From: Hyphomonadaceae bacterium
GTDB taxonomy: Bacteria > Pseudomonadota > Alphaproteobacteria > Caulobacterales > Aquidulcibacteraceae
Length of the DNA stretch: 64,000 nt
Direction of reading: 5' to 3'
Assembly (NCBI GenBank): GCA_041398325.1
Contig: JAWKUX010000014.1
Location: 20,596-84,595 of the forward strand
Shown: one piece after another, positions 5,323-31,071 of the stretch
Position numbering within the stretch: position 1 is the stretch's first letter
Layout of the letters: each line of letters opens with the position of its first letter
The notes under the pieces: model-generated
Told to the model about the DNA's origin: nothing
Database searches by the model: none
The model's input: only the letters and a program-made list of their open reading frames with translations
Program-made: the position numbers and the translations under genes

Positions 5323-5898
5323 TCATCCCGCCGCGTCGTAGGCCTTCTTCACGTAAGCGATGAGCTTGTCGTCGATCTCGTCGGCGCTTGTGAGCGGGAC
5401 GATGTATTGGCACATGCCGCCGGGCGGGACAGGCTTTACGCGCGTGTCTTTGATGTCGTCCTTGAGGTTCAGGCCCAGCTCGAAACGGTCGTTGGTCTTC
5501 GGCCCAAGCATCGCGAATTGCTTCTTGCGGCGCAGCGAAACGTAACCCTTCTTCGGCGCGATCTCGTGGTCGCCGAATTTCGAAATCGCTTTCATCAGCT
5601 TCTCGTGGATAGGGCGCAGGTGCTCTTTCTTACCGCTGTAGATCTCGGCCAGCACGTCGTTCGTACTCGCTCCGGCGGCCTTCGCGGCGCTGGCGCCATC
5701 TGACTTGAGCGCGGTGTGCGTGAGCGTGTTCGCGTCGCCATGGCCGAGGCCGTAGGTCTCCATCAGCCAAGCGCGGATTTCGCCGTGCTTGGAGAACCCG
5801 GATTTCTTGATGGCGGCGGTGAGCTGGGTCAGCGACTTGCCTGTCTTCTTCTCGATGTTGGCGAGCTGCGTGGCGAGCGCTTTGTCCATGTCGGCCAT
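5323..5898 (-). CDS. DUF4287/DUF5655 domain protein
   Basis: Start MADMDKALATQLANIEKKTGKSL with a GGGGAAG RBS. Family call from sequence memory. Confidence 0.55.
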   Translation of the reverse strand: MADMDKALATQLANIEKKTGKSLTQLTAAIKKSGFSKHGEIRAWLMETYGLGHGDANTLTHTALKSDGASAAKAAGASTNDVLAEIYSGKKEHLRPIHEKLMKAISKFGDHEIAPKKGYVSLRRKKQFAMLGPKTNDRFELGLNLKDDIKDTRVKPVPPGGMCQYIVPLTSADEIDDKLIAYVKKAYDAAG

Positions 5899-6008
5899 TT
5901 GAGCTTCCCCTTCGGGCTGACTATGACTTGTTTGAACGATCAATCAAGAGTAAAGCGATAACGGTGCTGGCTTCATCGGAGTGATCGGAGATCGCACCGT
6001 TGAGTGTC

Positions 6009-12463: not shown

Positions 12464-12696
12464 GCGTTCTGCTTTCCCGACAAAGGCGCGTGCAAAGAGT
12501 GCGCCCACGAACACGTTCTGTGGGCCGCATTGACACGCCCAGAGGCCGCTCTTAAGTCTCGAAAGCGCACGTGTCGAGGGTGTTTTCGCACGCGAGCGCG
12601 CGTCAGTGGGACGATAAAAAGCCAATTAACTCAAAGCGCTAGACGCTCCTCTCCGCGCCCACTGCCAAGCGGCGCCTTAACCATTAGAACGTGCAA

Positions 12697-15402
12697 ATGC
12701 TGAACCTCGCCAAGCAGATTTTCGGCTCCGTCAACGAGCGCAAGGTGCGCCACTTGAAGCCGATGGTTCAGCGCATCAATGCGCTGGAGCCCACCTTCGA
12801 GGCACTCTCGGACGAAGCTCTCCGAAATAAGACAAGCGAGTATCGCCACCGCCTGGCCCGGGGCGGCAAGATTGATGAAGTGCTGCCTGAAGCGTTCGCG
12901 ACTGTCCGCGAGGCCGGAAAACGCGTGCTCGGCATGCGCCACTTCGACGTGCAGTTGATGGGCGGCATGATGCTGCACCAGGGCAAGATCGCCGAAATGC
13001 GCACAGGCGAGGGCAAGACGCTGGTCGCGACCCTGCCGACCTACCTGAACGCGCTTGAGAGCCGCGGCGTCCACGTCATCACCGTCAACGACTACCTCGC
13101 CAAGCGCGACAGCGAGTGGATGGGCCAAGTCTATCGCTTCCTCGGCCTCAGCGTCGGCGTCATCGTTCACGGGCTTTACGACAACGAGCGCCGCCAGGCG
13201 TACGCGGCGGACGTCACCTACGGCACGAACAACGAGTTTGGCTTCGACTATCTGCGCGACAACATGAAGTACTCGCTGGGCGAGATGGTTCAGCGCGGCC
13301 ACCGGTACGCGATCGTCGACGAAGTCGACTCGATCCTGATTGACGAAGCGCGCACGCCGCTCATCATCTCGGGCCCAACCGAGGACCGCAGCGAGTTCTA
13401 CAAGTCGGTCGATGCGATCATCCCGCTGCTGCGGCCTGAGCACTTCGAGCATGACGAGAAGCAACGTTCGGTGACGTTCACAGAGGCGGGCTCGGAGCGC
13501 ATCGAGGAAATGCTGGTCGAGCGTGGCCTGCTGCAGGGCTCGCTCTACGAGCCCGCGAACATCACCATCGTCCACCATGCCAACCAGGCGCTGCGCGCGC
13601 ACAAGCTGTTCACGCGCGACAAGGACTACATCGTCAAAGACACCGAAGTTGTTCTGATCGACGAATTCACCGGTCGCATGATGGCTGGCCGTCGTTTGTC
13701 GGAAGGTCTGCACCAGGCGATCGAAGCCAAGGAAGGCGTGCAGATCCAGCCCGAGAACCAGACGCTCGCGTCGATCACGTTCCAGAACTACTTCCGCCTC
13801 TACGACAAACTCGGCGGCATGACCGGTACGGCGTCGACCGAAGCCGCCGAATTCGGCGACATCTATAAGCTCGATGTCGTTGAGGTGCCGACCAACCGTC
13901 CCGTGAAGCGCGAGGACGCGGACGATGAAGTTTATCGGACGGCGCGCGAAAAATACAAAGCCGTCATAGCCGACATTGAAGAGACGCACCGTCGCCAGCA
14001 ACCGGTGCTCGTCGGCACGGTGTCGATCGAGAAGTCGGAATTCCTCTCGAATATGCTGAAGCAGCGCGGCATCCCGCACCAGGTGCTGAACGCGCGCTAC
14101 CACGAGCAAGAAGCGCAGATCGTTGCGCAAGCCGGCGTGCCGGGCGCGGTGACGATCGCCACAAACATGGCTGGCCGCGGCACCGACATTCAACTCGGCG
14201 GCAACGTCGACATGCGTTTGAAGGCGGCGCTGAAGGGCGATGAGACGCCTGACCAGATTGCGCAGCTGAAGCGCCAGATCACGGTCGACATCGAGCAGAA
14301 GAAACGCGTCGCGCTGGAAGCGGGCGGCCTTTACGTGCTCGGCACCGAGCGCCACGAAAGCCGCCGCATTGATAACCAGCTGCGCGGCCGTACCGGCCGT
14401 CAGGGCGACCCTGGCAAGTCGAAATTCTACATCTGCCTTGAGGACGATTTGCTGCGCATCTTCGCGGCCGAGCGTCTGGACGCCATCATGCGCAGCCTCG
14501 GTATCCAAGAGGGTGAGGCGATCATTCACCCGTGGATGAACAAGGCGCTCGAAACGTCGCAACGCCGCGTCGAACAGCGCAACTTCGAAATCCGCAAGAA
14601 CCTGCTGAAGTACGACGACGTTATCAACGATCAGCGCAAGGCGATCTTCGAGCAGCGCATCGAGTTCATGCGCACCGCCGATGTCGCGCCGATCGTGAAG
14701 GATATGCGCCACGACGTGGTCGAAAAGCTCGTTTGGCGGCACATGCCAGAGAAGGCGTATCCGGAGCAATGGAATACGCCGGAGCTGATGACGGAAGCGG
14801 AAGAGATTTTCGGCTTCACCACGCCGGTTGATGCATGGGCGCGCGAAGAAGGTATTGCGCAGCAAGAGATCATTGAGCGCCTGACGCGCGAAGTGGATCA
14901 AGCATACGCGCAGAAGGCTGCGATGCTCGGGCCGGAGCGCCTGCGCGCGGTTGAGAAGCAGGTCCTGCTCAGCGTCGTCGACATGCGTTGGCGCGAGCAC
15001 TTGTCGTTCCTGGATCACCTGCGTTCGGTCATCCATTTGCGTGGCTACGCGCAGCGCGATCCGCTGAACGAGTTCAAGACCGAAGCGTTCACGCTATTTG
15101 AGCGTATGCTCCTGGACCTGCGCACGACGATCACGCGAATGTTGCTGCGTCTGCAAATCGGCCAGGCCGACGAAGCAGCGCTGGCGCCGCGCGCGCCGAC
15201 GCAGACCTACGAGGAGCACCGCAACTTCGATACTGGCGAAAACGAAATGGCGCGCCGCGAGGACATTCCATCGCTCGCGCCGGACGGTTTCGACCGGAAC
15301 AATCCGACGACGTGGGGCAAGGTCTCGCGCAACGCGCCGTGTCCGTGCGGCTCAGGCAAGAAGTTCAAGTATTGCCACGGCCAAGAGGCCGCGACCGCTT
15401 AG
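12697..15402 (+). CDS. secA: Preprotein translocase ATPase SecA
   Basis: [17 protein letters not shown]..., Walker A (MRTGEGKT), C-terminal zinc finger ([14 protein letters not shown]). ATG at 12697; the track ORF begins at GTG 12691. Confidence 0.95.
15369..15401. repeat. 33-bp direct repeat copy 1 (secA 3' end, attL-like)
   Basis: gtattgccacggccaagaggccgcgaccgctta is identical to 17111..17143. Confidence 0.75.
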
Positions 15403-15427
15403 GGGCCACGATTTAAAAGACATTTAA

Positions 15428-15472
15428 CGGTTGTCCGACACAGTCTGACGATGTCAGACAGTGTCGGACAAC
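15428..15472. other. 45-bp near-perfect palindrome (21-bp arms, 3-nt loop, one mismatch) immediately downstream of secA/attL
   Basis: ggttgtccgacacagtctgac-gat-gtcagacagtgtcggacaacc, with no following T-run. Confidence 0.45.
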
Positions 15473-15525
15473 CAGTGAGGATCCCAAAATGAGTCTTCCG
15501 AATCTGCCTCAGCCGCGCCCTGTCG

Positions 15526-16992
15526 TCATTCCGCGTCGGAAACGGACATCGTAATTTCCGAAACGTCGAAGTAACGGCGCCAACCCGCCTCCAGCCGCCA
15601 CTCCAAGCACGCATTAGCGGCCATTGCCTCGGTTTGGGGCGCCACTCCGACTGACGCGACGCATTTTTCGATGCCTCTACGTATGGCCTCGCGTGTCGAG
15701 CCAAAAACAATTTCAAGAAGTCCTTCGGCGTCCATCAAGGCTGATGCGATGTTGGGCAGAGTCTTGATCTTGGGGTCGCTTAAGCACTCGCGGCATTCAT
15801 GCTCGATCTTGCTCCGCTTGGACTCACTCGCCGTTGGTAAGAGTAGCTCCATGTCGAGCAGATGGCTCATTCGATTGAAGCGCACGTACGCCAAGTCGCT
15901 TTGTGCGAGGCTTGCGGCTTTGGGGTCCGCAAGCGGCGCGCTCAGATCGCGAATTAATTGGTCCGAGAAGTGGATTGCCTTTCGCAAGTCGCCAGCGACG
16001 TAGAATGTGAACGGGATTTGGAGTGTTAGCCGCTTCTTTTCGTTGGTCCAGGGCTCATCCCGCAGCAGGCGCACGAACCGCTCAGCGTGTATGCCGATGA
16101 ATTTTGACAGATCGCCAAGTCTACGCCCGCTTCCGGCCCGTGTTGCTAGCAGCCAGGCATGCTTCACGTCATCAACGTGTTGATCTCCAAGGGCGGCTAC
16201 CTCCTCCATTAGCTTCTCTATTCGTCCGCTTCCGATCGTCTCGGTCTCTGCTTGTTTGCGCAACGCATCAATCTTCTTCCAGAGTTTGGTGATCTTTCGG
16301 TTCTTGAGATCCAACAGTGGCTCGATGTCCGCCGAAGACTCCGTGAAGAACTGTTCGCAACTCGCGTCGAACGCTCGCGTCTCGAGCATGTGACGCGACC
16401 AAATCATGTTGCGCACAGAAATGCTCTGTTGCTCGATGCCATCCAATGTCATTCCCACGGCAGTGACAAGGCGGGGAATTCTGGAGTTGAGGTTGCCTCC
16501 GGGCTTGTAGGTAAGGTCATGCATCTTCGACGCCCAGGCGTCATGGAGCACGGTCTTGACTTGTACCTCACATAGGAAGTCATCATTTGATGCGAAGGTT
16601 TGGTGAGTTGCGTAGTAACCTTCGATTTTTGGCTCTGCTTGCGCGACGGCGCGCACCCCAATGCGTCGTAGATCAGACTCAAGGACACGTAGAACGTCGA
16701 GTGGCTGATCCGGATATTGCACGACAATCGTGAGTCCTACGATATCGTGGAGCCGTTTTATTTTCCCGTCATCGAGCGGAAGTTGATCGTACAGTTTGTC
16801 AAAGATCTTTGAGGCGTCTTTGATCTCCGAATCGTTCTGCTTTTCCTTTCGGGAGTAGATGCGATAAATGTAATTGGCCCCCATTTGCCGTTTCAGGTTC
16901 TTGGCTGTCGTTCTGATTTTGTCGAGGAGATCTTCGTAGCTTCTAGTGTGACGATGCAAGAATGCTTCGATGATCATAAGATCGTTGGACAT
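15526..16992 (-). CDS. RelA/SpoT-like (p)ppGpp-synthetase-fold nucleotidyltransferase fused to a ~290-aa unknown C-terminal domain (candidate toxSAS/CapRel-like)
   Basis: Motifs DIVGLTIVV, GYYATHQTF and EVQVKTVLHDAWASKMHDLTYK match the Rel synthetase signatures (GYRSLH, EIQIRTxxMxxWAExxHxxYK). Low-GC codon usage. 488 aa. Confidence 0.6.
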   Translation of the reverse strand: MSNDLMIIEAFLHRHTRSYEDLLDKIRTTAKNLKRQMGANYIYRIYSRKEKQNDSEIKDASKIFDKLYDQLPLDDGKIKRLHDIVGLTIVVQYPDQPLDVLRVLESDLRRIGVRAVAQAEPKIEGYYATHQTFASNDDFLCEVQVKTVLHDAWASKMHDLTYKPGGNLNSRIPRLVTAVGMTLDGIEQQSISVRNMIWSRHMLETRAFDASCEQFFTESSADIEPLLDLKNRKITKLWKKIDALRKQAETETIGSGRIEKLMEEVAALGDQHVDDVKHAWLLATRAGSGRRLGDLSKFIGIHAERFVRLLRDEPWTNEKKRLTLQIPFTFYVAGDLRKAIHFSDQLIRDLSAPLADPKAASLAQSDLAYVRFNRMSHLLDMELLLPTASESKRSKIEHECRECLSDPKIKTLPNIASALMDAEGLLEIVFGSTREAIRRGIEKCVASVGVAPQTEAMAANACLEWRLEAGWRRYFDVSEITMSVSDAE

Positions 16993-17110
16993 GGCTCGCG
17001 CCTAGCCTTCCTTTGGGTGTTTCCGGGCACACTATTGAAGCTTGCTGTTTTGTACAGCTTTGGTGTGCGGGAGCGGCGCTGGGGATCGCTTTCCTGTTTC
17101 GAGAGCCTTC

Positions 17111-17143
17111 GTATTGCCACGGCCAAGAGGCCGCGACCGCTTA
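17111..17143. repeat. 33-bp direct repeat copy 2 (attR-like)
   Basis: Identical to 15369..15401. Its last 3 nt (TTA) form the stop codon of the convergent gene 17141..17977. Confidence 0.75.
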
Positions 17144-17977
17144 ACGCCGCGAGGGCTGGAAGGTGAGCGGCTGATCCGTTGGGATCGCGCTTGTGATCCG
17201 GTAGGTCAGCGCGCCATCGGCTAACGATTGCAGCTCGATCTGCGCGCCATTGAAGGCGAGCGTGCGCGGCATGTTGGCCGCTTGCACAGAGTCGCGCTGA
17301 TCGCTGATCGCCACGGCAGCGTCGCCTTCGCGTGAGCGCAGATCAACAATTGCTGTTTCGCCAACAATGCGCGCTGTGAGTTCGAGTTCAACCGGCGCAA
17401 TACGGTGTGTTTGCAGAGGCGTGTATGGCGCCGGAGAGGGGATGGGGCTGACCGAGATCGTCACTGCGCCGCCGCTGATATGCGGCGTGGCCGGCGTTTC
17501 CCAGGCGCCGCTGACGGCGCGCGTTGGTGTGACATTGAGCTGAATGAAGGCCAGGTGGTCGAAAACGCGATCGCCATTGCCATCGGCAAGGCACGCGCGC
17601 GTGATGAGCGGCGGGCGGATGGGGCTGTAGGTCGTTGTCTCCCTCTGCACAGCGCAGAAGAGACGAAGGTCGCGTCGCTGCACGAGCAGAAGCGGAAAGA
17701 GTTCCGTCCCTGGCGCGATCGCTAGCGAGATCGAAGCGTTGCCCACCGGGATCGATCCTGCGACCGGCGCATCAACGCGGACGACGCCGATGACGTTCGC
17801 TTGCTGCGTCAGCAGAGCGGTTGTTCCAGTTGCTGTTTGCGGTTCGGTGCTGATTTCGACGGGCTGCGGCGCCAGAACTGGCGTGGCGGCGTCGCTCACC
17901 GTTTGCGGCGGCGTCGTTTGCGCCATGAGTAGTGGCGCGAGCAGCAGCGTGGCCAGTCCTGGCATGCGGCGTTTCAT
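17141..17977 (-). CDS. Secreted hypothetical protein (signal peptide)
   Basis: MKRRMPGLATLLLAPLLMAQ signal peptide with GGAG upstream. Thr/Pro-rich mature protein. Confidence 0.55.
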   Translation of the reverse strand: MKRRMPGLATLLLAPLLMAQTTPPQTVSDAATPVLAPQPVEISTEPQTATGTTALLTQQANVIGVVRVDAPVAGSIPVGNASISLAIAPGTELFPLLLVQRRDLRLFCAVQRETTTYSPIRPPLITRACLADGNGDRVFDHLAFIQLNVTPTRAVSGAWETPATPHISGGAVTISVSPIPSPAPYTPLQTHRIAPVELELTARIVGETAIVDLRSREGDAAVAISDQRDSVQAANMPRTLAFNGAQIELQSLADGALTYRITSAIPTDQPLTFQPSRR

Positions 17978-19380
17978 TGGGCGCCTGCGAGCTCCGTTAG
18001 CAGCACATGCCACTGCGTGAGGCCATTGTAGAAGCTGTCCACGGGCACGCGCTCATTGAGCCCATGGGCGAAATCGTCGTTGTCACTGATGAAGATGGCG
18101 CCAACGCCGTAGGTCGGGATGCCGGCGGCGCGGAAGAAGATGCCGTCGGTTGCGCCAGCCGACATGTAGGGAGACATAACGGCATTCGGGTAGTTGACGT
18201 GCACTGCGCGTGCGGTGGCTTGCATCACGTCGGGACGCAATGGCGAAGCGTCGCTCGAGTTAGACGGCCCGAGTTGCGTGACCTCGACCTTGTTGCCGGC
18301 GATGGCGCGAAGTTCAGCCAGCACATCATTCACAGCGACGCCTGGGAAGATACGGCAGTTTACGGTGGCGCTCGCGCTCTGCGGCAGGGCGTTTTCGGCG
18401 TGGCCGCCGGCCAACATGGTGGCGACACAGGTGGTGCGCATCATCGCGGAAAGCGAAACGTTGCGCGACAGCGTGCGCGCGGCGACGCGATCACCGGGGT
18501 TTTCTGCAAAGCGGCGAAGTGCTGCGCCCTCAGCGCCCGGAAACGCGCGCGCGGCGTTGCGGAAGCTCTCGATCGTGGTTTCGTTCCACATGATCGGGAA
18601 CTGGAAAGCGCGCAGCCGGGCAAGCGCATCGCCGAGATCGTAGATGGCGTTGTCTTCGCGCGGCTGCGAGGAGTGGCCGCCGGGATTGCGCGCTGTGAAG
18701 GTAAAGCTGGCGTAGGTCTTCTCTGCTGTCTGCAGGACGTAGGCGATGCCGCGATTGTTGCCGTCGAGTTGGCCGCCGCCAGCGTCGGAGTTGAGCGCAT
18801 ACTCAGCGTTGCCGAGCAGGTCGCGATGATTGGCGAGCAAGGCTTCAGTCGTTGCGCCGGTGGTTTCTTCGTCACCCGAGAACCAGATGATGAGATCGCG
18901 CGTGGGCACGAAGCCTTCGGCGCGGAGCGTCAGGAAGGTCGAGGTGAGTTGAGCAATGCCGCCCTTGTTGTCGATTGTGCCGCGGCCAAAGAAGAAGCCG
19001 CGCTCCTCAATGAGCGTGAACGGATCGCGCTCCCAGTCGGTACGCAGCGCGGGTACCACGTCCATGTGCGCGAGCAGCAAGATAGGACGGCCGCCTGAGC
19101 CGTTACCGCGATAGCGGACGAGCAGGCCCGCTGTGCCATTGAGCGGTAGGACGTGAACGTCTTCGGCAGCAAATCCCGCGTTGCGAAAGAGGCCTGCGAG
19201 ATAGTCGGCCATGGCAGGGGTCTGGCCGCCATCGACGGACGTGTCGAAGGCGATGACGCGTTGGTAGATGTCGCGCGCTTGCCCGCGCTGCGCCTCGCTC
19301 GGCGCTTGTGCCGAAGCCGCGCTGCCCAAGCCGCAGAAAAAGACGGCGCTCAGCAGCAGCGCCCGAACCCAATCGCCCAT
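17974..19380 (-). CDS. M20/M25/M40 family metallopeptidase (signal peptide)
   Basis: LLLAHMDVVP, FGRGTIDNKGG and GDEETG metal-binding motifs. N-terminal signal peptide. Confidence 0.85.
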   Translation of the reverse strand: MGDWVRALLLSAVFFCGLGSAASAQAPSEAQRGQARDIYQRVIAFDTSVDGGQTPAMADYLAGLFRNAGFAAEDVHVLPLNGTAGLLVRYRGNGSGGRPILLLAHMDVVPALRTDWERDPFTLIEERGFFFGRGTIDNKGGIAQLTSTFLTLRAEGFVPTRDLIIWFSGDEETTGATTEALLANHRDLLGNAEYALNSDAGGGQLDGNNRGIAYVLQTAEKTYASFTFTARNPGGHSSQPREDNAIYDLGDALARLRAFQFPIMWNETTIESFRNAARAFPGAEGAALRRFAENPGDRVAARTLSRNVSLSAMMRTTCVATMLAGGHAENALPQSASATVNCRIFPGVAVNDVLAELRAIAGNKVEVTQLGPSNSSDASPLRPDVMQATARAVHVNYPNAVMSPYMSAGATDGIFFRAAGIPTYGVGAIFISDNDDFAHGLNERVPVDSFYNGLTQWHVLLTELAGAQ

Positions 19381-19457
19381 GAGAATCCCCAATCGTTCCG
19401 GGCATCGTGGCCCGAGGGTTAGCGCTTTGGCAAGGGATTGGGCGCAGGGCTAGGGTG

Positions 19458-28636: not shown

Positions 28637-29665
28637 ATGGCCGAAGCAGAACGCATCGTCACCGCTGACCGCATGCCCGGGGAGGGCGCTGACCGTGCGC
28701 TCCGTCCGCAGGGGTTCGACGAGTTCGTCGGCCAGCCGCACGCCAAGGCCAATCTCAAAGTGTTCGTGGACGCGGCGCGCAATCGCGGCGAGGCGATGGA
28801 CCACGTCCTGCTGTTCGGCCCGCCGGGCCTCGGCAAGACGACGCTCTCGCAGATCGTGGCGCGCGAATTGGGTGTCGGTTTTCGCTCGACCAGCGGGCCG
28901 GTGATTGCGCGCGCCGGCGATCTCGCCGCGCTGCTGACCAATCTCGAACCTCGCGACGTGCTCTTCATCGACGAGATCCACCGCCTCGCGCCGCAAGTGG
29001 AGGAGATCCTCTATCCGGCGATGGAGGACTATCACCTCGACATCATCATCGGCGAAGGTCCAAGCGCGCGCAGCGTGCGAATTGATCTGGCGCCGTTCAC
29101 ACTGATTGGCGCGACAACTCGTGCGGGCATGCTGTCGACGCCGCTCCGCGATCGTTTTGGCATTCCTGTGCGGCTAGAATTTTACGGGCCGGACGAATTG
29201 CTCGGCATCGTGACGCGCGGCGCTGCCAAACTCGGCGCGCCGATCACGCCGGAAGGCGCGATGGAAATCGCCAAGCGCGCGCGCGGCACGCCGCGTGTTG
29301 CTGTGCGTCTGCTCCGACGGGTTCGTGACTTTGCTGGCGAGAGCGTCATTGATGCGAAAGTGGCGGATGCGGCGCTGAAGCGTCTCGATGTCGATAGCGA
29401 CGGGCTGGATCTGTTGGATCGGCGCTATTTGCATGCGCTGGTTGAGACGTATTCAGGCGGGCCAGTCGGCGTTGAAACGCTGGCCGCGGCGCTCGCCGAA
29501 GCGCGCGATGCGCTGGAAGACGTGATCGAGCCTTACTTGATGCAGCAAGGCTTCGTTATGCGCACACCGCGCGGGCGCGTCGCCGCGCCGAAGGCCTATG
29601 AGCGCCTGGGCAAAAAGCCGCCGAGTGCTCCGCCGTCGAGTGGGAGCTTGTTCGGGGAGAAGTGA
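28637..29665 (+). CDS. ruvB: Holliday junction branch migration ATPase RuvB
   Basis: Walker [11 protein letters not shown], Walker [10 protein letters not shown], sensor/arginine finger regions. Confidence 0.95.
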
Positions 29666-30468
29666 TGCCCTCGCCAACGGTCAACAACTATCTCGATCAG
29701 GTTCGATTCCGAGCCCAGAACGCGGAAGCGGAGTTTGAAACGGCCGTCAAGTCGTTGCACGGTAGCCAAGCGGCAAAGGGGCTGCTGCGTTCGGGCGCAA
29801 CGATCAAGAAATCCTTGGATTTGCTTGCGGCCGATTTCGATAGACTTACTGATGAGTTGCTAGCGTACTTAGCTAAGACGCTTTCACGCACTGAGCTCGA
29901 TCGCTCTGAATTGCTAGGCCTGACAGCGCAAATACTACAGTCATCCAAGGCCGCATTCTCGGCACTGATACGGCCCGCGCTGCTTCGTTCATTTGCTCCG
30001 TCGAAAAGCATTGATGCCGTGATTGACGCCGGTATCGCTTCGGTGGGTCAGCGGCTGACGCTACGTCTCCAAGAATTCGCCTTCGGCCTAGATGATCACA
30101 CTCCAACATCGAAGGATTTTGCCGTGACCAACAACATCAACATCGGCTCCAACTTCGGTAATGTTCAGCAAGGCACGCGCGATTCATCTCAGACCATGAC
30201 GGTCTCGCTAGATGCCGGCGCGATCAAGGTTGCGCTTGAGCAATTTGATGTCGCGTTGGCAGGCCTCCCTGAAAGTGAGCGCGCGAAGATGATGCCCGAT
30301 CTGATTGCCTTGAGGGCTCAAGCTTCCAAGCCCTCATTGTCCGAGAGCGTTGTCAAAGAGATCGGTAAGAGTCTGAGAGGAGTGGCCGAAGGCATCGCGG
30401 GTAACTTGGCTACTCCAGCCTTTGTGACCGCGTGTGCGGCGTTGTGGTCGGCGCTGGGGATTGGCTGA
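29662..30468 (+). CDS. Hypothetical protein P1 (268 aa, low GC), paralogous C-terminal motif with P2
   Basis: ATGA overlap with the ruvB stop. GC ~52%. Motif [27 protein letters not shown]. Confidence 0.55.
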
Positions 30469-30471
30469 GCT

Positions 30472-31071
30472 ATGGTCGCTTCAGTCTACCATCGCTTAGC
30501 TGCGGACGTCTTTGCGGACGCAGATCGATTGGATCGCGAATACATCACGCGATGGTTCATGGCGTTCGCATCGAAAAAGCCACTCGAAATCGAACATCCT
30601 CGTACCGGCCGGTTTCATGTCGGAGGTTTCGCTTTCGGCGGTGACCTAGTTATTCGGTATGACCAATTCACGCGGACCATCATCGATGATTTTGTCGAGC
30701 GTCATCTTCGCGCTTGCGAGGATGGCCTCGAGGCCGTGCCCGATGCAAAGTTGGGTGCAGCGGTCCCAGAGTTTGCGGGGATGATTTTCTCTGCTGCAAC
30801 TCGACTGTCGGATCGGCAGGGCAAGTTGAAGCGCAGATTGTTGCGTGGATCCGGATCAGACTGGGCGCCTCTCTTTGAGCATGGCATGGACAGCATGATG
30901 TCCCGACTTGCGACGAAGGTCGATGAACTCAGGGTACTACGCGGCGCGGCAGGCGTCTCCAACACCGTGGTGATCGGGGCCAATTTTGGTGCCGTCCAGG
31001 TCGGAACGGTTGCTTCAAGCCAAACGCAGCGGACCATCACTCACGATCCGGCAGACCTCGGCGAGAATTGA
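30472..31071 (+). CDS. Hypothetical protein P2 (199 aa, low GC), shares C-terminal motif with P1
   Basis: Begins 4 nt after the P1 stop. Motif TVVIGANFGAVQVGTVASSQTQRTITHD. Confidence 0.55.
   Translation: MVASVYHRLAADVFADADRLDREYITRWFMAFASKKPLEIEHPRTGRFHVGGFAFGGDLVIRYDQFTRTIIDDFVERHLRACEDGLEAVPDAKLGAAVPEFAGMIFSAATRLSDRQGKLKRRLLRGSGSDWAPLFEHGMDSMMSRLATKVDELRVLRGAAGVSNTVVIGANFGAVQVGTVASSQTQRTITHDPADLGEN

Follow-up and report, generated by a model that had tools for sequence, protein, structure and literature searches.

Alarmone synthetases serve as stress regulators as well as toxin or defence effectors, and the attached regulatory domain and the partner decide which role a given enzyme plays. 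A gene in the window (the whole 64,000-nt stretch of DNA from a Hyphomonadaceae bacterium analysed here) raises this question, as the initial annotation had proposed it as a candidate CapRel-like defence gene, with a synthetase fold joined to a large C-terminal part. We asked what kind of synthetase it encodes, how it came to its chromosomal position, and which role is the most plausible for it.

The synthetase core and its C-terminal domain

The gene and the parts of its product are the following:
15526–16992, minus strand: SAS-TPR gene, an ORF with an ATG start, 488 aa plus stop
16489–16992, minus strand: N-terminal small-alarmone-synthetase (RelA/SpoT synthetase) domain, residues 1–168
16324–16482, minus strand: long connecting helix, residues 171–223 (H171–223 in the AF2 secondary structure)
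15532–16299, minus strand: predicted C-terminal TPR-like all-helical domain, residues 232–487, ending in GWRRYF

The start codon of the window protein matches the starts of its homologues in the family alignment. The three synthetase motifs previously pointed out in this protein are all present (DIVGLTIVV, residues 83–91; GYYATHQTF, 125–133; EVQVKTVLHDAWASKMHDLTYK, 142–163), and the Pfam family RelA_SpoT (PF04607) matched residues 57–165 (E 1.8e-12; 48 bits, where the cut-off is 27), so the motif match is not due to chance. HD hydrolase, TGS, and ACT domains are absent from the window protein, which has the synthetase domain only, as is the rule for the SAS class, and by its sequence it is a member of the RelA/SpoT homologue (RSH) synthetase superfamily. 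The Mg-binding aspartate D83, E142/Q144 of the ExQ motif, the basic triphosphate-binding residues R48/K58/K62, and the G-loop tyrosine Y126 vary little or not at all across 50 sequences and align with those of RelQ. In profile searches, the catalytic domain matched RelQ and RelP with E-values from 3e-15 to 1e-8 and CapRel with 6e-3; RelQ and RelP were its best matches in both sequence and structure, and the domain is of the RelQ/RelP structural type. In a comparison with the family profile, the protein scored 525 bits, with residues 3–481 covered, the scored record being P0001. P0001 is not quite identical to the window protein: the two agree at 487 of 488 positions, with D184E as the sole difference.

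The arginine of the DxxGxR motif stacks on the adenine of the donor ATP (R95 in FaRel2, R116 in CapRel; PMC11782079, PMC9712102). At this position the window protein has T88, invariant in the family alignment, and the donor site of the family reads DxxGxT; threonine was found there in 146 of 152 retrieved proteins, the latter being those in which the motif could be located. As a consequence of this replacement, ATP binding may be unusual, or the activity may need a factor acting in trans.

The C-terminal part had been described as featureless, and by sequence this holds: no Pfam TPR family matched the window protein at E ≤ 1, and consensus TPR proteins gave only sub-threshold matches in the profile search (E 0.05–0.5). 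In contrast, AF2 folds these ~260 residues confidently into a TPR-like superhelix (pLDDT 92.8), and according to this model the domain is an all-helical, TPR-like solenoid. The predicted superhelix and the PF04607 match bear out the architecture initially suggested, a synthetase-fold enzyme with a large fused non-catalytic domain. Conserved residues are found in the connecting helix (E187, Q189, S190, and R194) and at the C-terminal end, where the GWRRYF motif is conserved and W471 is invariant. When the C-terminal domain alone was used as a homology query, four proteins were returned, all of the same family, and local profile scans with the N- and C-terminal domains gave truncated fragments only, so the TPR-like domain was not seen in any other architecture. 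Mean identity within the family is 30% for the TPR-like domain versus 41% for the catalytic one; the variability of the TPR-like domain is only moderate.

The antitoxin domain of CapRel is a β-sheet pseudo-zinc-finger with a YxxY motif (PMC9712102), and the YxxY tyrosines of CapRel-type antitoxins engage the DxxGxR arginine (PMC11782079). Neither a pseudo-zinc-finger nor a conserved YxxY was found in the C-terminal domain of the window protein, in the model or in the alignment. The PADLOC check recommended with the initial annotation (PADLOC-DB v2) gave only a weak match to PDC-S33, a candidate system in PADLOC, with an E-value of 4.4e-5 over residues 57–155 of the catalytic domain, and relatives of the window protein scored similarly weakly. 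Of the CapRel-like proposal, then, the fused architecture and the horizontally acquired islet stand, but the catalytic domain is nearer to RelQ/RelP, the C-terminus is all-helical in the model, and the donor site has Thr88: the window protein is not a CapRel. A CapRel-like way of acting, i.e., autoinhibition lifted by a trigger, is possible.

An insertion at the 3' end of secA

The surroundings of the gene are organised as follows:
12691–15402, plus strand: secA, the target gene with the duplicated 3' end, identified by Pfam (flank, outside the element)
15369–15401, plus strand: left copy of a 33-nt direct repeat, serving as the functional end of secA (codons Y894–A903 plus TA of the stop)
15402–17110, no strand: unique DNA of the insertion (the islet), absent from relatives L036 and L037
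15429–15473, no strand: hairpin with a 21-nt stem, inside the islet, with secA and the SAS-TPR gene converging on it
16993–17110, minus strand: upstream region of the SAS-TPR gene inside the islet, 118 nt, GC ~0.51
17111–17143, plus strand: right repeat copy (33 nt), the final 3 nt of which form the stop codon of gene 17141–18013
17141–18013, minus strand: conserved hypothetical gene, convergent with secA (flank, outside the element)

The description of the locus as a single-gene islet was confirmed by the 33-nt repeat, a dip in GC, and an empty site in two related metagenomic genomes (L036 and L037), in which the two flanks adjoin. The insertion measures 1,742 bp, one repeat copy included, and its site is the overlapping stops of secA and the convergent gene, both of which are intact because the final 33 nt of secA were duplicated in the process. 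The repeat is perfect, with two copies only in the 64-kb window and none in shuffled controls. GC is ~0.46–0.55 within the insertion versus ~0.63 outside, and GC3 is 0.63 in the SAS-TPR gene, 0.82 in secA, and 0.70 in the neighbouring gene, the host ORF list having been pre-filtered at GC3 of at least 0.68 and used for these named flanking genes only. According to the ORF list, the SAS-TPR gene is the sole cargo, with 124 nt of unique DNA on one side and 118 nt on the other. These short flanks, together with a negative profile search for the partner described below, agree with the earlier remark that no antitoxin ORF is adjacent; about half of the homologues have a small neighbour. The flanking genes scanned (8.1–23.3 kb) are ordinary chromosomal genes, and no integrase, recombinase, or transposase was found among them or in the 1.7-kb insert.

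The product of secA matched SecA_DEAD, P-loop_SecA, SecA_SW, SecA_PP_bind, and SEC-C in Pfam, the SEC-C motif spanning residues 880–897. The convergent gene, whose call on the Logan contig L035 gives 278 aa, has no Pfam match and is found with 83–86% identity in L036 and L037, where it adjoins secA. Exact-sequence look-ups of its 278-aa form and of P0001 led to L035 only, and those of SecA with two choices of start and of the convergent gene in its 290-aa form gave no match. Inside the islet, the hairpin (stem 95% complementary, 3-nt loop) is unique within the window and folds as RNA with z = −5 on both strands; it is likely a bidirectional transcription stop, and a clear U-tract was not found at it. 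The islet showed no sigma-70-like promoter, and no Rfam family matched within the window.

The sister contig L035 is continuous across the right junction of the insertion, where its repeat copy has diverged, with 27 of 33 positions matching and 9 extra nt. Between the window and L035, the SAS-TPR gene shows six differences, five synonymous and one D/E, a pattern with P = 0.003 under neutrality; judged from these substitutions, the window copy is under purifying selection without a partner. L035 ends near the hairpin; a reading of this as population heterogeneity was rejected, as the contig ends inside the 45-nt inverted repeat and its right junction is continuous. An inverted repeat of this length would probably interrupt a short-k de Bruijn assembly.

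There are integrative elements that enter a conserved gene at its 3' end and, by duplicating that end, leave the gene whole. The insertion is like them in its repeat, which corresponds to the 3' end of the target gene, in the empty site of relatives, in its foreign composition, and in the distal repeat copy of the sister strain, a diverged version of the same sequence. Unlike them, it has a single cargo gene and neither integrase nor transposase; of the features that define a site-specific integrative element, target-matching end repeats and empty sites are present, and an element-encoded integrase is not. No exact flanking repeat of at least 16 nt was found at any other family locus, which means that the 33-nt duplication does not mark the family as a whole.

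A sporadic family and its ParB/Srx-fold partner

The family comprises ~260 clusters at 50% identity, mainly in Alphaproteobacteria. A search of ~185,000 species genomes detected 30 family loci; the nearest relative is 41% identical. The GC content of the gene was below that of its flanks at 21 of the 21 loci measured, and in the eight genomes examined the gene occupied a different, unrelated chromosomal site in each. Among these contexts, the neighbours were housekeeping genes, one copy was flanked by IS, and no defence island was found in any of the eight. In addition, no relatives were found on viral contigs in IMG/VR, and BFVD gave matches to the catalytic domain and none beyond it. The family is uncharacterised and horizontally mobile, and its mobility and sporadic occurrence are more in keeping with a conflict or selfish module than with a housekeeping enzyme.

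About half of the family members have an adjacent small protein of ParB/Srx fold, present in 11 related genomes and occasionally fused to the synthetase (L026, P0110, P0118, and P0127). This partner is a single domain of ~110–120 aa with four invariant arginines, encoded 100–400 nt from the SAS-TPR gene or even divergently from it. It had no Pfam, PADLOC, or single-sequence PDB match, its fold being recognised by profile and structure prediction. The set used for comparison comprised small nucleotide-binding proteins of this fold, namely SbnI, free serine kinase, sulfiredoxin, and the N-terminal domain of KorB/Noc; with respect to ParB-fold proteins, the GERR arginine box of ParB is replaced in the partner by an invariant DGNST. 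The main text of a 2025 survey of ParB folds mentions no linkage or fusion to a RelA/SpoT synthetase. An HMM built from the partner domain only, without the rest of the L026 fusion protein, found no partner across the 64 kb of the window. The clade within which the window protein nests is one of partner-bearing members, and a partner is present in L001, its nearest relative among the genomes; some ten further members have none within 10 kb.

Proposed role and comparison with known systems

The reading that we prefer, at about an even chance of being right, is that the window protein is an alarmone synthetase gated by its TPR-like domain and works as a mobile module in conflict or stress. The enzyme would move pyrophosphate from ATP onto the 3'-OH of a purine nucleotide, yielding (p)ppGpp and/or (p)ppApp; by analogy with the DsRel SAS-TPR enzyme Tde-SAS, the TPR domain would restrain this activity until it binds a protein or peptide, and the resulting alarmone burst would slow or halt growth. 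That the gene is mobile, sporadic, and located on an islet speaks for a module of the conflict or addiction type (resembling abortive infection or a toxin) more than for a core stress regulator. Where present, the ParB/Srx partner might bind, sequester, or process the nucleotide, or gate the enzyme, and it would be an accessory, since copies without it persist under purifying selection. More tentatively, the SAS-TPR protein and this partner may form an undescribed two-component nucleotide-signalling conflict system, in which the TPR domain would sense an invader or stress protein, the DxxGxT synthetase would make an alarmone-type nucleotide, and the arginine-rich partner would read, sequester, or convert it. 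The window would then hold the minimal, partner-less version, in an integrase-less 1.7-kb cassette targeting the 3' end of secA.

Alternatively, the protein could be a (p)ppGpp synthetase of the DsRel/SAS-TPR type with an accessory role in physiology, tuning the stringent response under a condition that its TPR domain senses and being neither toxin nor defence gene. In sequence and fold the window protein comes closest to RelQ and RelP, which are non-toxic, there is a SAS-TPR precedent in which the TPR merely brakes ppGpp synthesis (PMC10434055), partner-less copies persist, with that of the window under purifying selection, and the neighbours are housekeeping genes. Nevertheless, only 30 loci in ~185,000 genomes, a nearest relative at 41% identity, a GC below the flanks at 21/21 loci, a new chromosomal site in each genome examined, with one copy IS-flanked, and the location of the window gene on an insertion missing from close relatives form a pattern typical of selfish or conflict genes and not of host-integrated regulators, which leaves this explanation rather doubtful.

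A CapRel-like fused toxin-antitoxin, in which the C-terminal antitoxin would double as phage sensor and tRNA 3'-CCA pyrophosphorylation would abort infection, appears unlikely: the profile scores favour RelQ/RelP (3e-15 to 1e-8 versus 6e-3), the C-terminal domain is predicted all-α with neither pseudo-zinc-finger nor conserved YxxY, the very arginine that YxxY engages is a threonine, and no defence-island neighbourhood in the contexts examined, viral-contig relative, BFVD match beyond the catalytic domain, or pointer to tRNA as substrate was found. It seems more improbable still that the window copy is an orphaned remnant, inactive or decaying cargo of a functional unit made of SAS-TPR protein and partner. 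Its place inside the partner-bearing clade next to partner-bearing L001, the lack of a partner anywhere in 64 kb, and D169N and E380D, which deviate at nearly invariant positions, would fit such decay, but the ORF is full-length, with a family-profile score of 525 bits, every invariant residue is retained, the six differences from the sister strain comprise five synonymous changes and one D/E, and about ten other members lack a partner within 10 kb as well.

The family has a RelQ/P-like core in which a canonical donor-site arginine is missing, joined to a large TPR-like domain, and a linked, sometimes fused, ParB/Srx protein, in a unit that moves as one- or two-gene islets. It offers a tractable test of TPR-gated alarmone synthesis in genetic conflicts and of the dealings of a minimal ParB/Srx domain with alarmones, and the window provides a clean natural experiment: the insertion is exact, relatives have the empty site, the partner-less copy is under purifying selection, and the junction repeat comes in two alleles.

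Among known systems, RelQ and RelP (SAS1 and SAS2 of Firmicutes) are single-domain proteins of ~210–230 aa, vertically inherited and non-toxic. The family has in common with them the Syn motifs, the G-loop tyrosine, ExQ, and H..YK, and differs in the threonine that replaces the arginine of their DxxGxR. Bicistronic toxSAS modules (FaRel2/ATfaRel2, PhRel, and FaRel; PMC7229694, PMC11782079) are toxin-antitoxin pairs, which many family members resemble in having a conserved small gene next to the synthetase gene, with occasional fusions, but their antitoxins are of pZFD, Tis1, SAH, or Panacea type and encoded by overlapping genes, whereas the partner of the family has a ParB/Srx fold, lies 100–400 nt away or divergently, and is absent from about half of the members, including that of the window. 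CapRelSJ46 (PDB 7ZTB; PMC9712102) is, like the window protein, a single ORF with a RelA/SpoT-fold N-terminus and a C-terminal regulatory domain on mobile DNA, and the logic of autoinhibition plus trigger is plausible for both by analogy; its C-terminal domain is a pseudo-zinc-finger of ~90 aa whose YxxY stacks on two donor-site arginines (PMC9712102), in contrast to the predicted TPR-like solenoid of ~260 aa without YxxY and the replacement of one of those arginines by threonine, and the two are only marginally similar in sequence (E 6e-3).

The closest known architecture is that of DsRel "SAS-TPR", a single polypeptide in which a linker joins an N-terminal RelQ/RelP-like synthetase domain to a helical domain of TPR type at the C-terminus. 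In the member Tde-SAS of Treponema denticola (TDE1711), the TPR domain lowers the catalytic efficiency of ppGpp synthesis (PMC10434055). Tde-SAS has 410 aa and four canonical, sequence-detectable TPR motifs, whereas the window protein has 488 aa and no Pfam TPR; DsRel is found in spirochaetes and Deltaproteobacteria and is the only synthetase in Treponema, whereas the window family is alphaproteobacterial and sporadic. The islet, the DxxGxT donor site, and the tie of the family to a ParB/Srx partner further separate the two. The family represents a third configuration, beside DsRel with its TPR brake in a housekeeping setting and CapRel with its pseudo-zinc-finger as phage sensor.

A single-gene insertion at the 3' end of secA

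The SAS-TPR gene, encoding a RelA/SpoT synthetase domain followed by a TPR-like C-terminal domain, is the sole cargo of a low-GC islet with the following features:

15369-15401 and 17111-17143: perfect 33-nt direct repeat
15429-15473: hairpin (21-nt stem, 3-nt loop) in the islet, shortly after the secA stop and between the convergent secA and SAS-TPR genes
15526-16992, minus strand: SAS-TPR ORF, ATG start, 488 aa

The window contains no third copy of the repeat with up to 3 mismatches allowed, and shuffled controls yielded none; by our own estimate, its chance expectation is around 3e-11. The left copy corresponds to the end of secA (codons Y894-A903 plus the TA of the stop) and takes in the final Cys-His of the SEC-C zinc motif, whereas the last 3 nt of the right copy form the stop codon for the convergent gene (17141-18013). 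GC content drops from around 0.63 outside to 0.46-0.55 within. In two metagenomic relatives (L036 and L037), with flanks 81-91% identical to the window, secA directly adjoins the convergent gene and the 33-mer is present in single copy, the window flanks overlapping by around 38 nt in L037. Because these relatives represent empty sites, 15402-17110 is an insertion with one gene, confirming the single-gene islet proposed in the initial annotation. Between 8.1 and 23.3 kb, the islet is flanked by ordinary genes of the chromosome (AraC-type regulator, Rce1-like, ArgJ, PpiC, SecA, M20, Wzy_C, RuvC, M13), with no integrase or transposase among them.

Relatives lacking the islet also vary at the secA 3' junction: in L036, 62 nt of unrelated sequence (5849-5910) lie between the secA stop and that of the neighbouring gene, and in L037 both stops overlap. 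The hairpin, which lacks a U-tract, might terminate transcription of both convergent genes or be a site related to recombination.

Only one other assembly, the Logan contig L035 (SRR11296560), carries the islet; it covers window positions 15466-19446, ending inside the hairpin and thus short of the left junction, and shows around 14 differing positions in 3.9 kb outside the junction. The junction repeat is polymorphic between both strains, as the right junction of L035, which corresponds to window 17100-17143, holds a diverged 33-mer, with 27 of 33 positions matching, 9 extra and 2 missing nucleotides, downstream of which the DNA continues identical to the window. Since this change is too large for drift at around 0.4% divergence, a discrete event of recombination or conversion took place in one of the lineages. 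A crossover, in a shared CGCTTA block, between an islet-borne diverged secA-3'-like site and the chromosomal secA end would produce the L035 form, and the perfect repeat of the window would then have arisen through later homogenisation; the events may also have run in the opposite order.

The SAS-TPR genes of both strains differ at six nucleotides, five of them synonymous and one producing D184E (487 of 488 residues identical), with L035 carrying the family-majority Glu. Under neutrality, with 22.9% of possible changes synonymous, at least five of six would be synonymous with P = 0.003; the gene is maintained under purifying selection. Its SNP density (0.41%) equals that of the flank (0.35%), and therefore the islet was already in the common ancestor of both strains.

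A second low-GC islet (29662-31071, GC 0.56) lies between ruvB, which it directly follows, and a Band_7/SPFH gene. Its two ORFs (268 and 199 aa), neither with a Pfam match, show a similar motif near the C-terminus, one copy being NTVVIGANFGAVQVGTVASSQT and the other 22 residues long; the first ORF gave a weak PADLOC match to the candidate PDC-M14B (E 1.6e-4).

Catalytic and C-terminal domains of the SAS-TPR protein

The synthetase fold initially recognised from three motifs (residues 83-91, 125-133, and 142-163) is real, as Pfam RelA_SpoT matches residues 57-165 (E 1.8e-12, 48 bits versus a cut-off of 27); the RelQ (YjbM) and long-RSH models of NCBIfam scored far below threshold. The protein belongs to the RSH synthetase superfamily and falls within the SAS class. 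A 50-sequence family alignment revealed R48, K58, D83, T88, Y126, H130, E142, Q144, K146, H150, and W153 as invariant, together with an HDLxYKP block. With the family profile, SAS structures of the RelQ/RelP type were matched at E values between 3e-15 and 1e-8, and CapRelSJ46 (7ZTB) only at E 6e-3.

Of the 152 retrieved proteins in which the motif could be located, outgroups with different C-termini among them, 146 have Thr in place of the Arg of DxxGxR, a family-wide deviation of the predicted active site. This Arg stacks on the donor ATP adenine (R95 in FaRel2, R116 in CapRel) and is engaged by the YxxY tyrosines of pseudo-zinc-finger (pZFD) antitoxins (PMC11782079; PMC9712102). With Thr invariant at the donor site, ATP may be bound in a different way, or the stacking residue may come from another element, such as the WRRYF helix at the C-terminus or the partner protein described below.

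Outgroup proteins from a Sphingomonas (L025), a Puniceicoccaceae MAG (L027), an Arenimonas (L028), and an alphaproteobacterial MAG (L030) have the signature KT.LHDAW..K.HDL.YK in common; DxxGxT was also present in the first three and was not found in L030. Because these features are shared, the unusual synthetase core reaches beyond the SAS-TPR family and the Alphaproteobacteria. The C-terminal regions of these outgroups (ORFs of 464-589 aa) showed no alignment with the family and no Pfam match.

An AlphaFold2 model on the family alignment (pLDDT 92.8, pTM 0.83) consisted of an alpha/beta domain (1-165), a 53-residue helix (171-223), and an all-helical domain (232-487). The C-terminal half matches TPR-type solenoids, ligand-sensing ones among them (3gw4, 12.1; LGN, 11.1; NprR, 10.4; PlcR and RapH, 10.1; MalT domain III, 9.1), and therefore the 290 aa initially described as featureless are a TPR-like domain. 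Its invariant residues are N373, G424, and W471, the last inside a GWRRYF motif.

Family spread and the ParB/Srx-fold partner

A word-indexed search recovered 56 homologues of 470-500 aa that align over their full length; apart from identical sequences, the closest was 41% identical. An exhaustive profile search yielded 263 representative clusters at E <= 1e-30. Among around 185,000 species (one genome each), only 30 loci were detected, nearly all alphaproteobacterial. The family is mobile: gene GC was 3 to 22 points lower than flank GC in each of the 21 full-length loci, and seven further genomic contexts were all different, mostly housekeeping, with no recognisable defence island among them. 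In one of these, the Methylobacterium copy P0050 has an IS110-family transposase gene on one side and an IS605 OrfB/TnpB-type gene on the other (L038:6143-11822); its record on at least 24 contigs suggests recent spread. IMG/VR contained no relative of the family, and BFVD only matches to the catalytic domain.

A small ParB/Srx-fold partner is genetically linked to the family. In 11 genomes, a conserved ORF of 94-137 aa, counted from the first start codon, adjoins the SAS-TPR gene, mostly 100-400 nt downstream in the same orientation and in one case upstream and divergent. In addition, in-frame fusions to the SAS-TPR N-terminus, of around 600 aa, were found in L026 (9575-11383), P0110, P0118, and P0127, a natural Rosetta-stone link between both genes. 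About ten genomes have no partner within 10 kb, and the whole window has none either, in agreement with the initial observation that no antitoxin ORF is adjacent. In a neighbour-joining tree, the window protein falls inside the partner-bearing clade, beside L001 (partner present) and L002 (partner absent); given this nesting, its partner-less state is the consequence of secondary loss or failed transfer.

Proposed activity and relation to known synthetases

As the catalytic domain is close to RelQ/RelP, the enzyme would transfer pyrophosphate from ATP to a purine nucleotide, although tRNA may be the alternative acceptor, and the partner could have an accessory nucleotide-binding or gating role. 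The distribution and islet context of the family point to a conflict or addiction-type role.

The CapRel-like defence reading of the initial annotation was only partly supported. PADLOC gave one weak match, to the single-gene candidate PDC-S33 (E 4.4e-5), covering the catalytic domain alone. The protein is not a CapRel, because neither the C-terminal fold nor the YxxY motif was found, and the similarity to the CapRelSJ46 catalytic domain is marginal. With DsRel SAS-TPR, the window protein has its architecture in common, whereas the two differ in size, taxonomy, repeat detectability, mobility, and partner.
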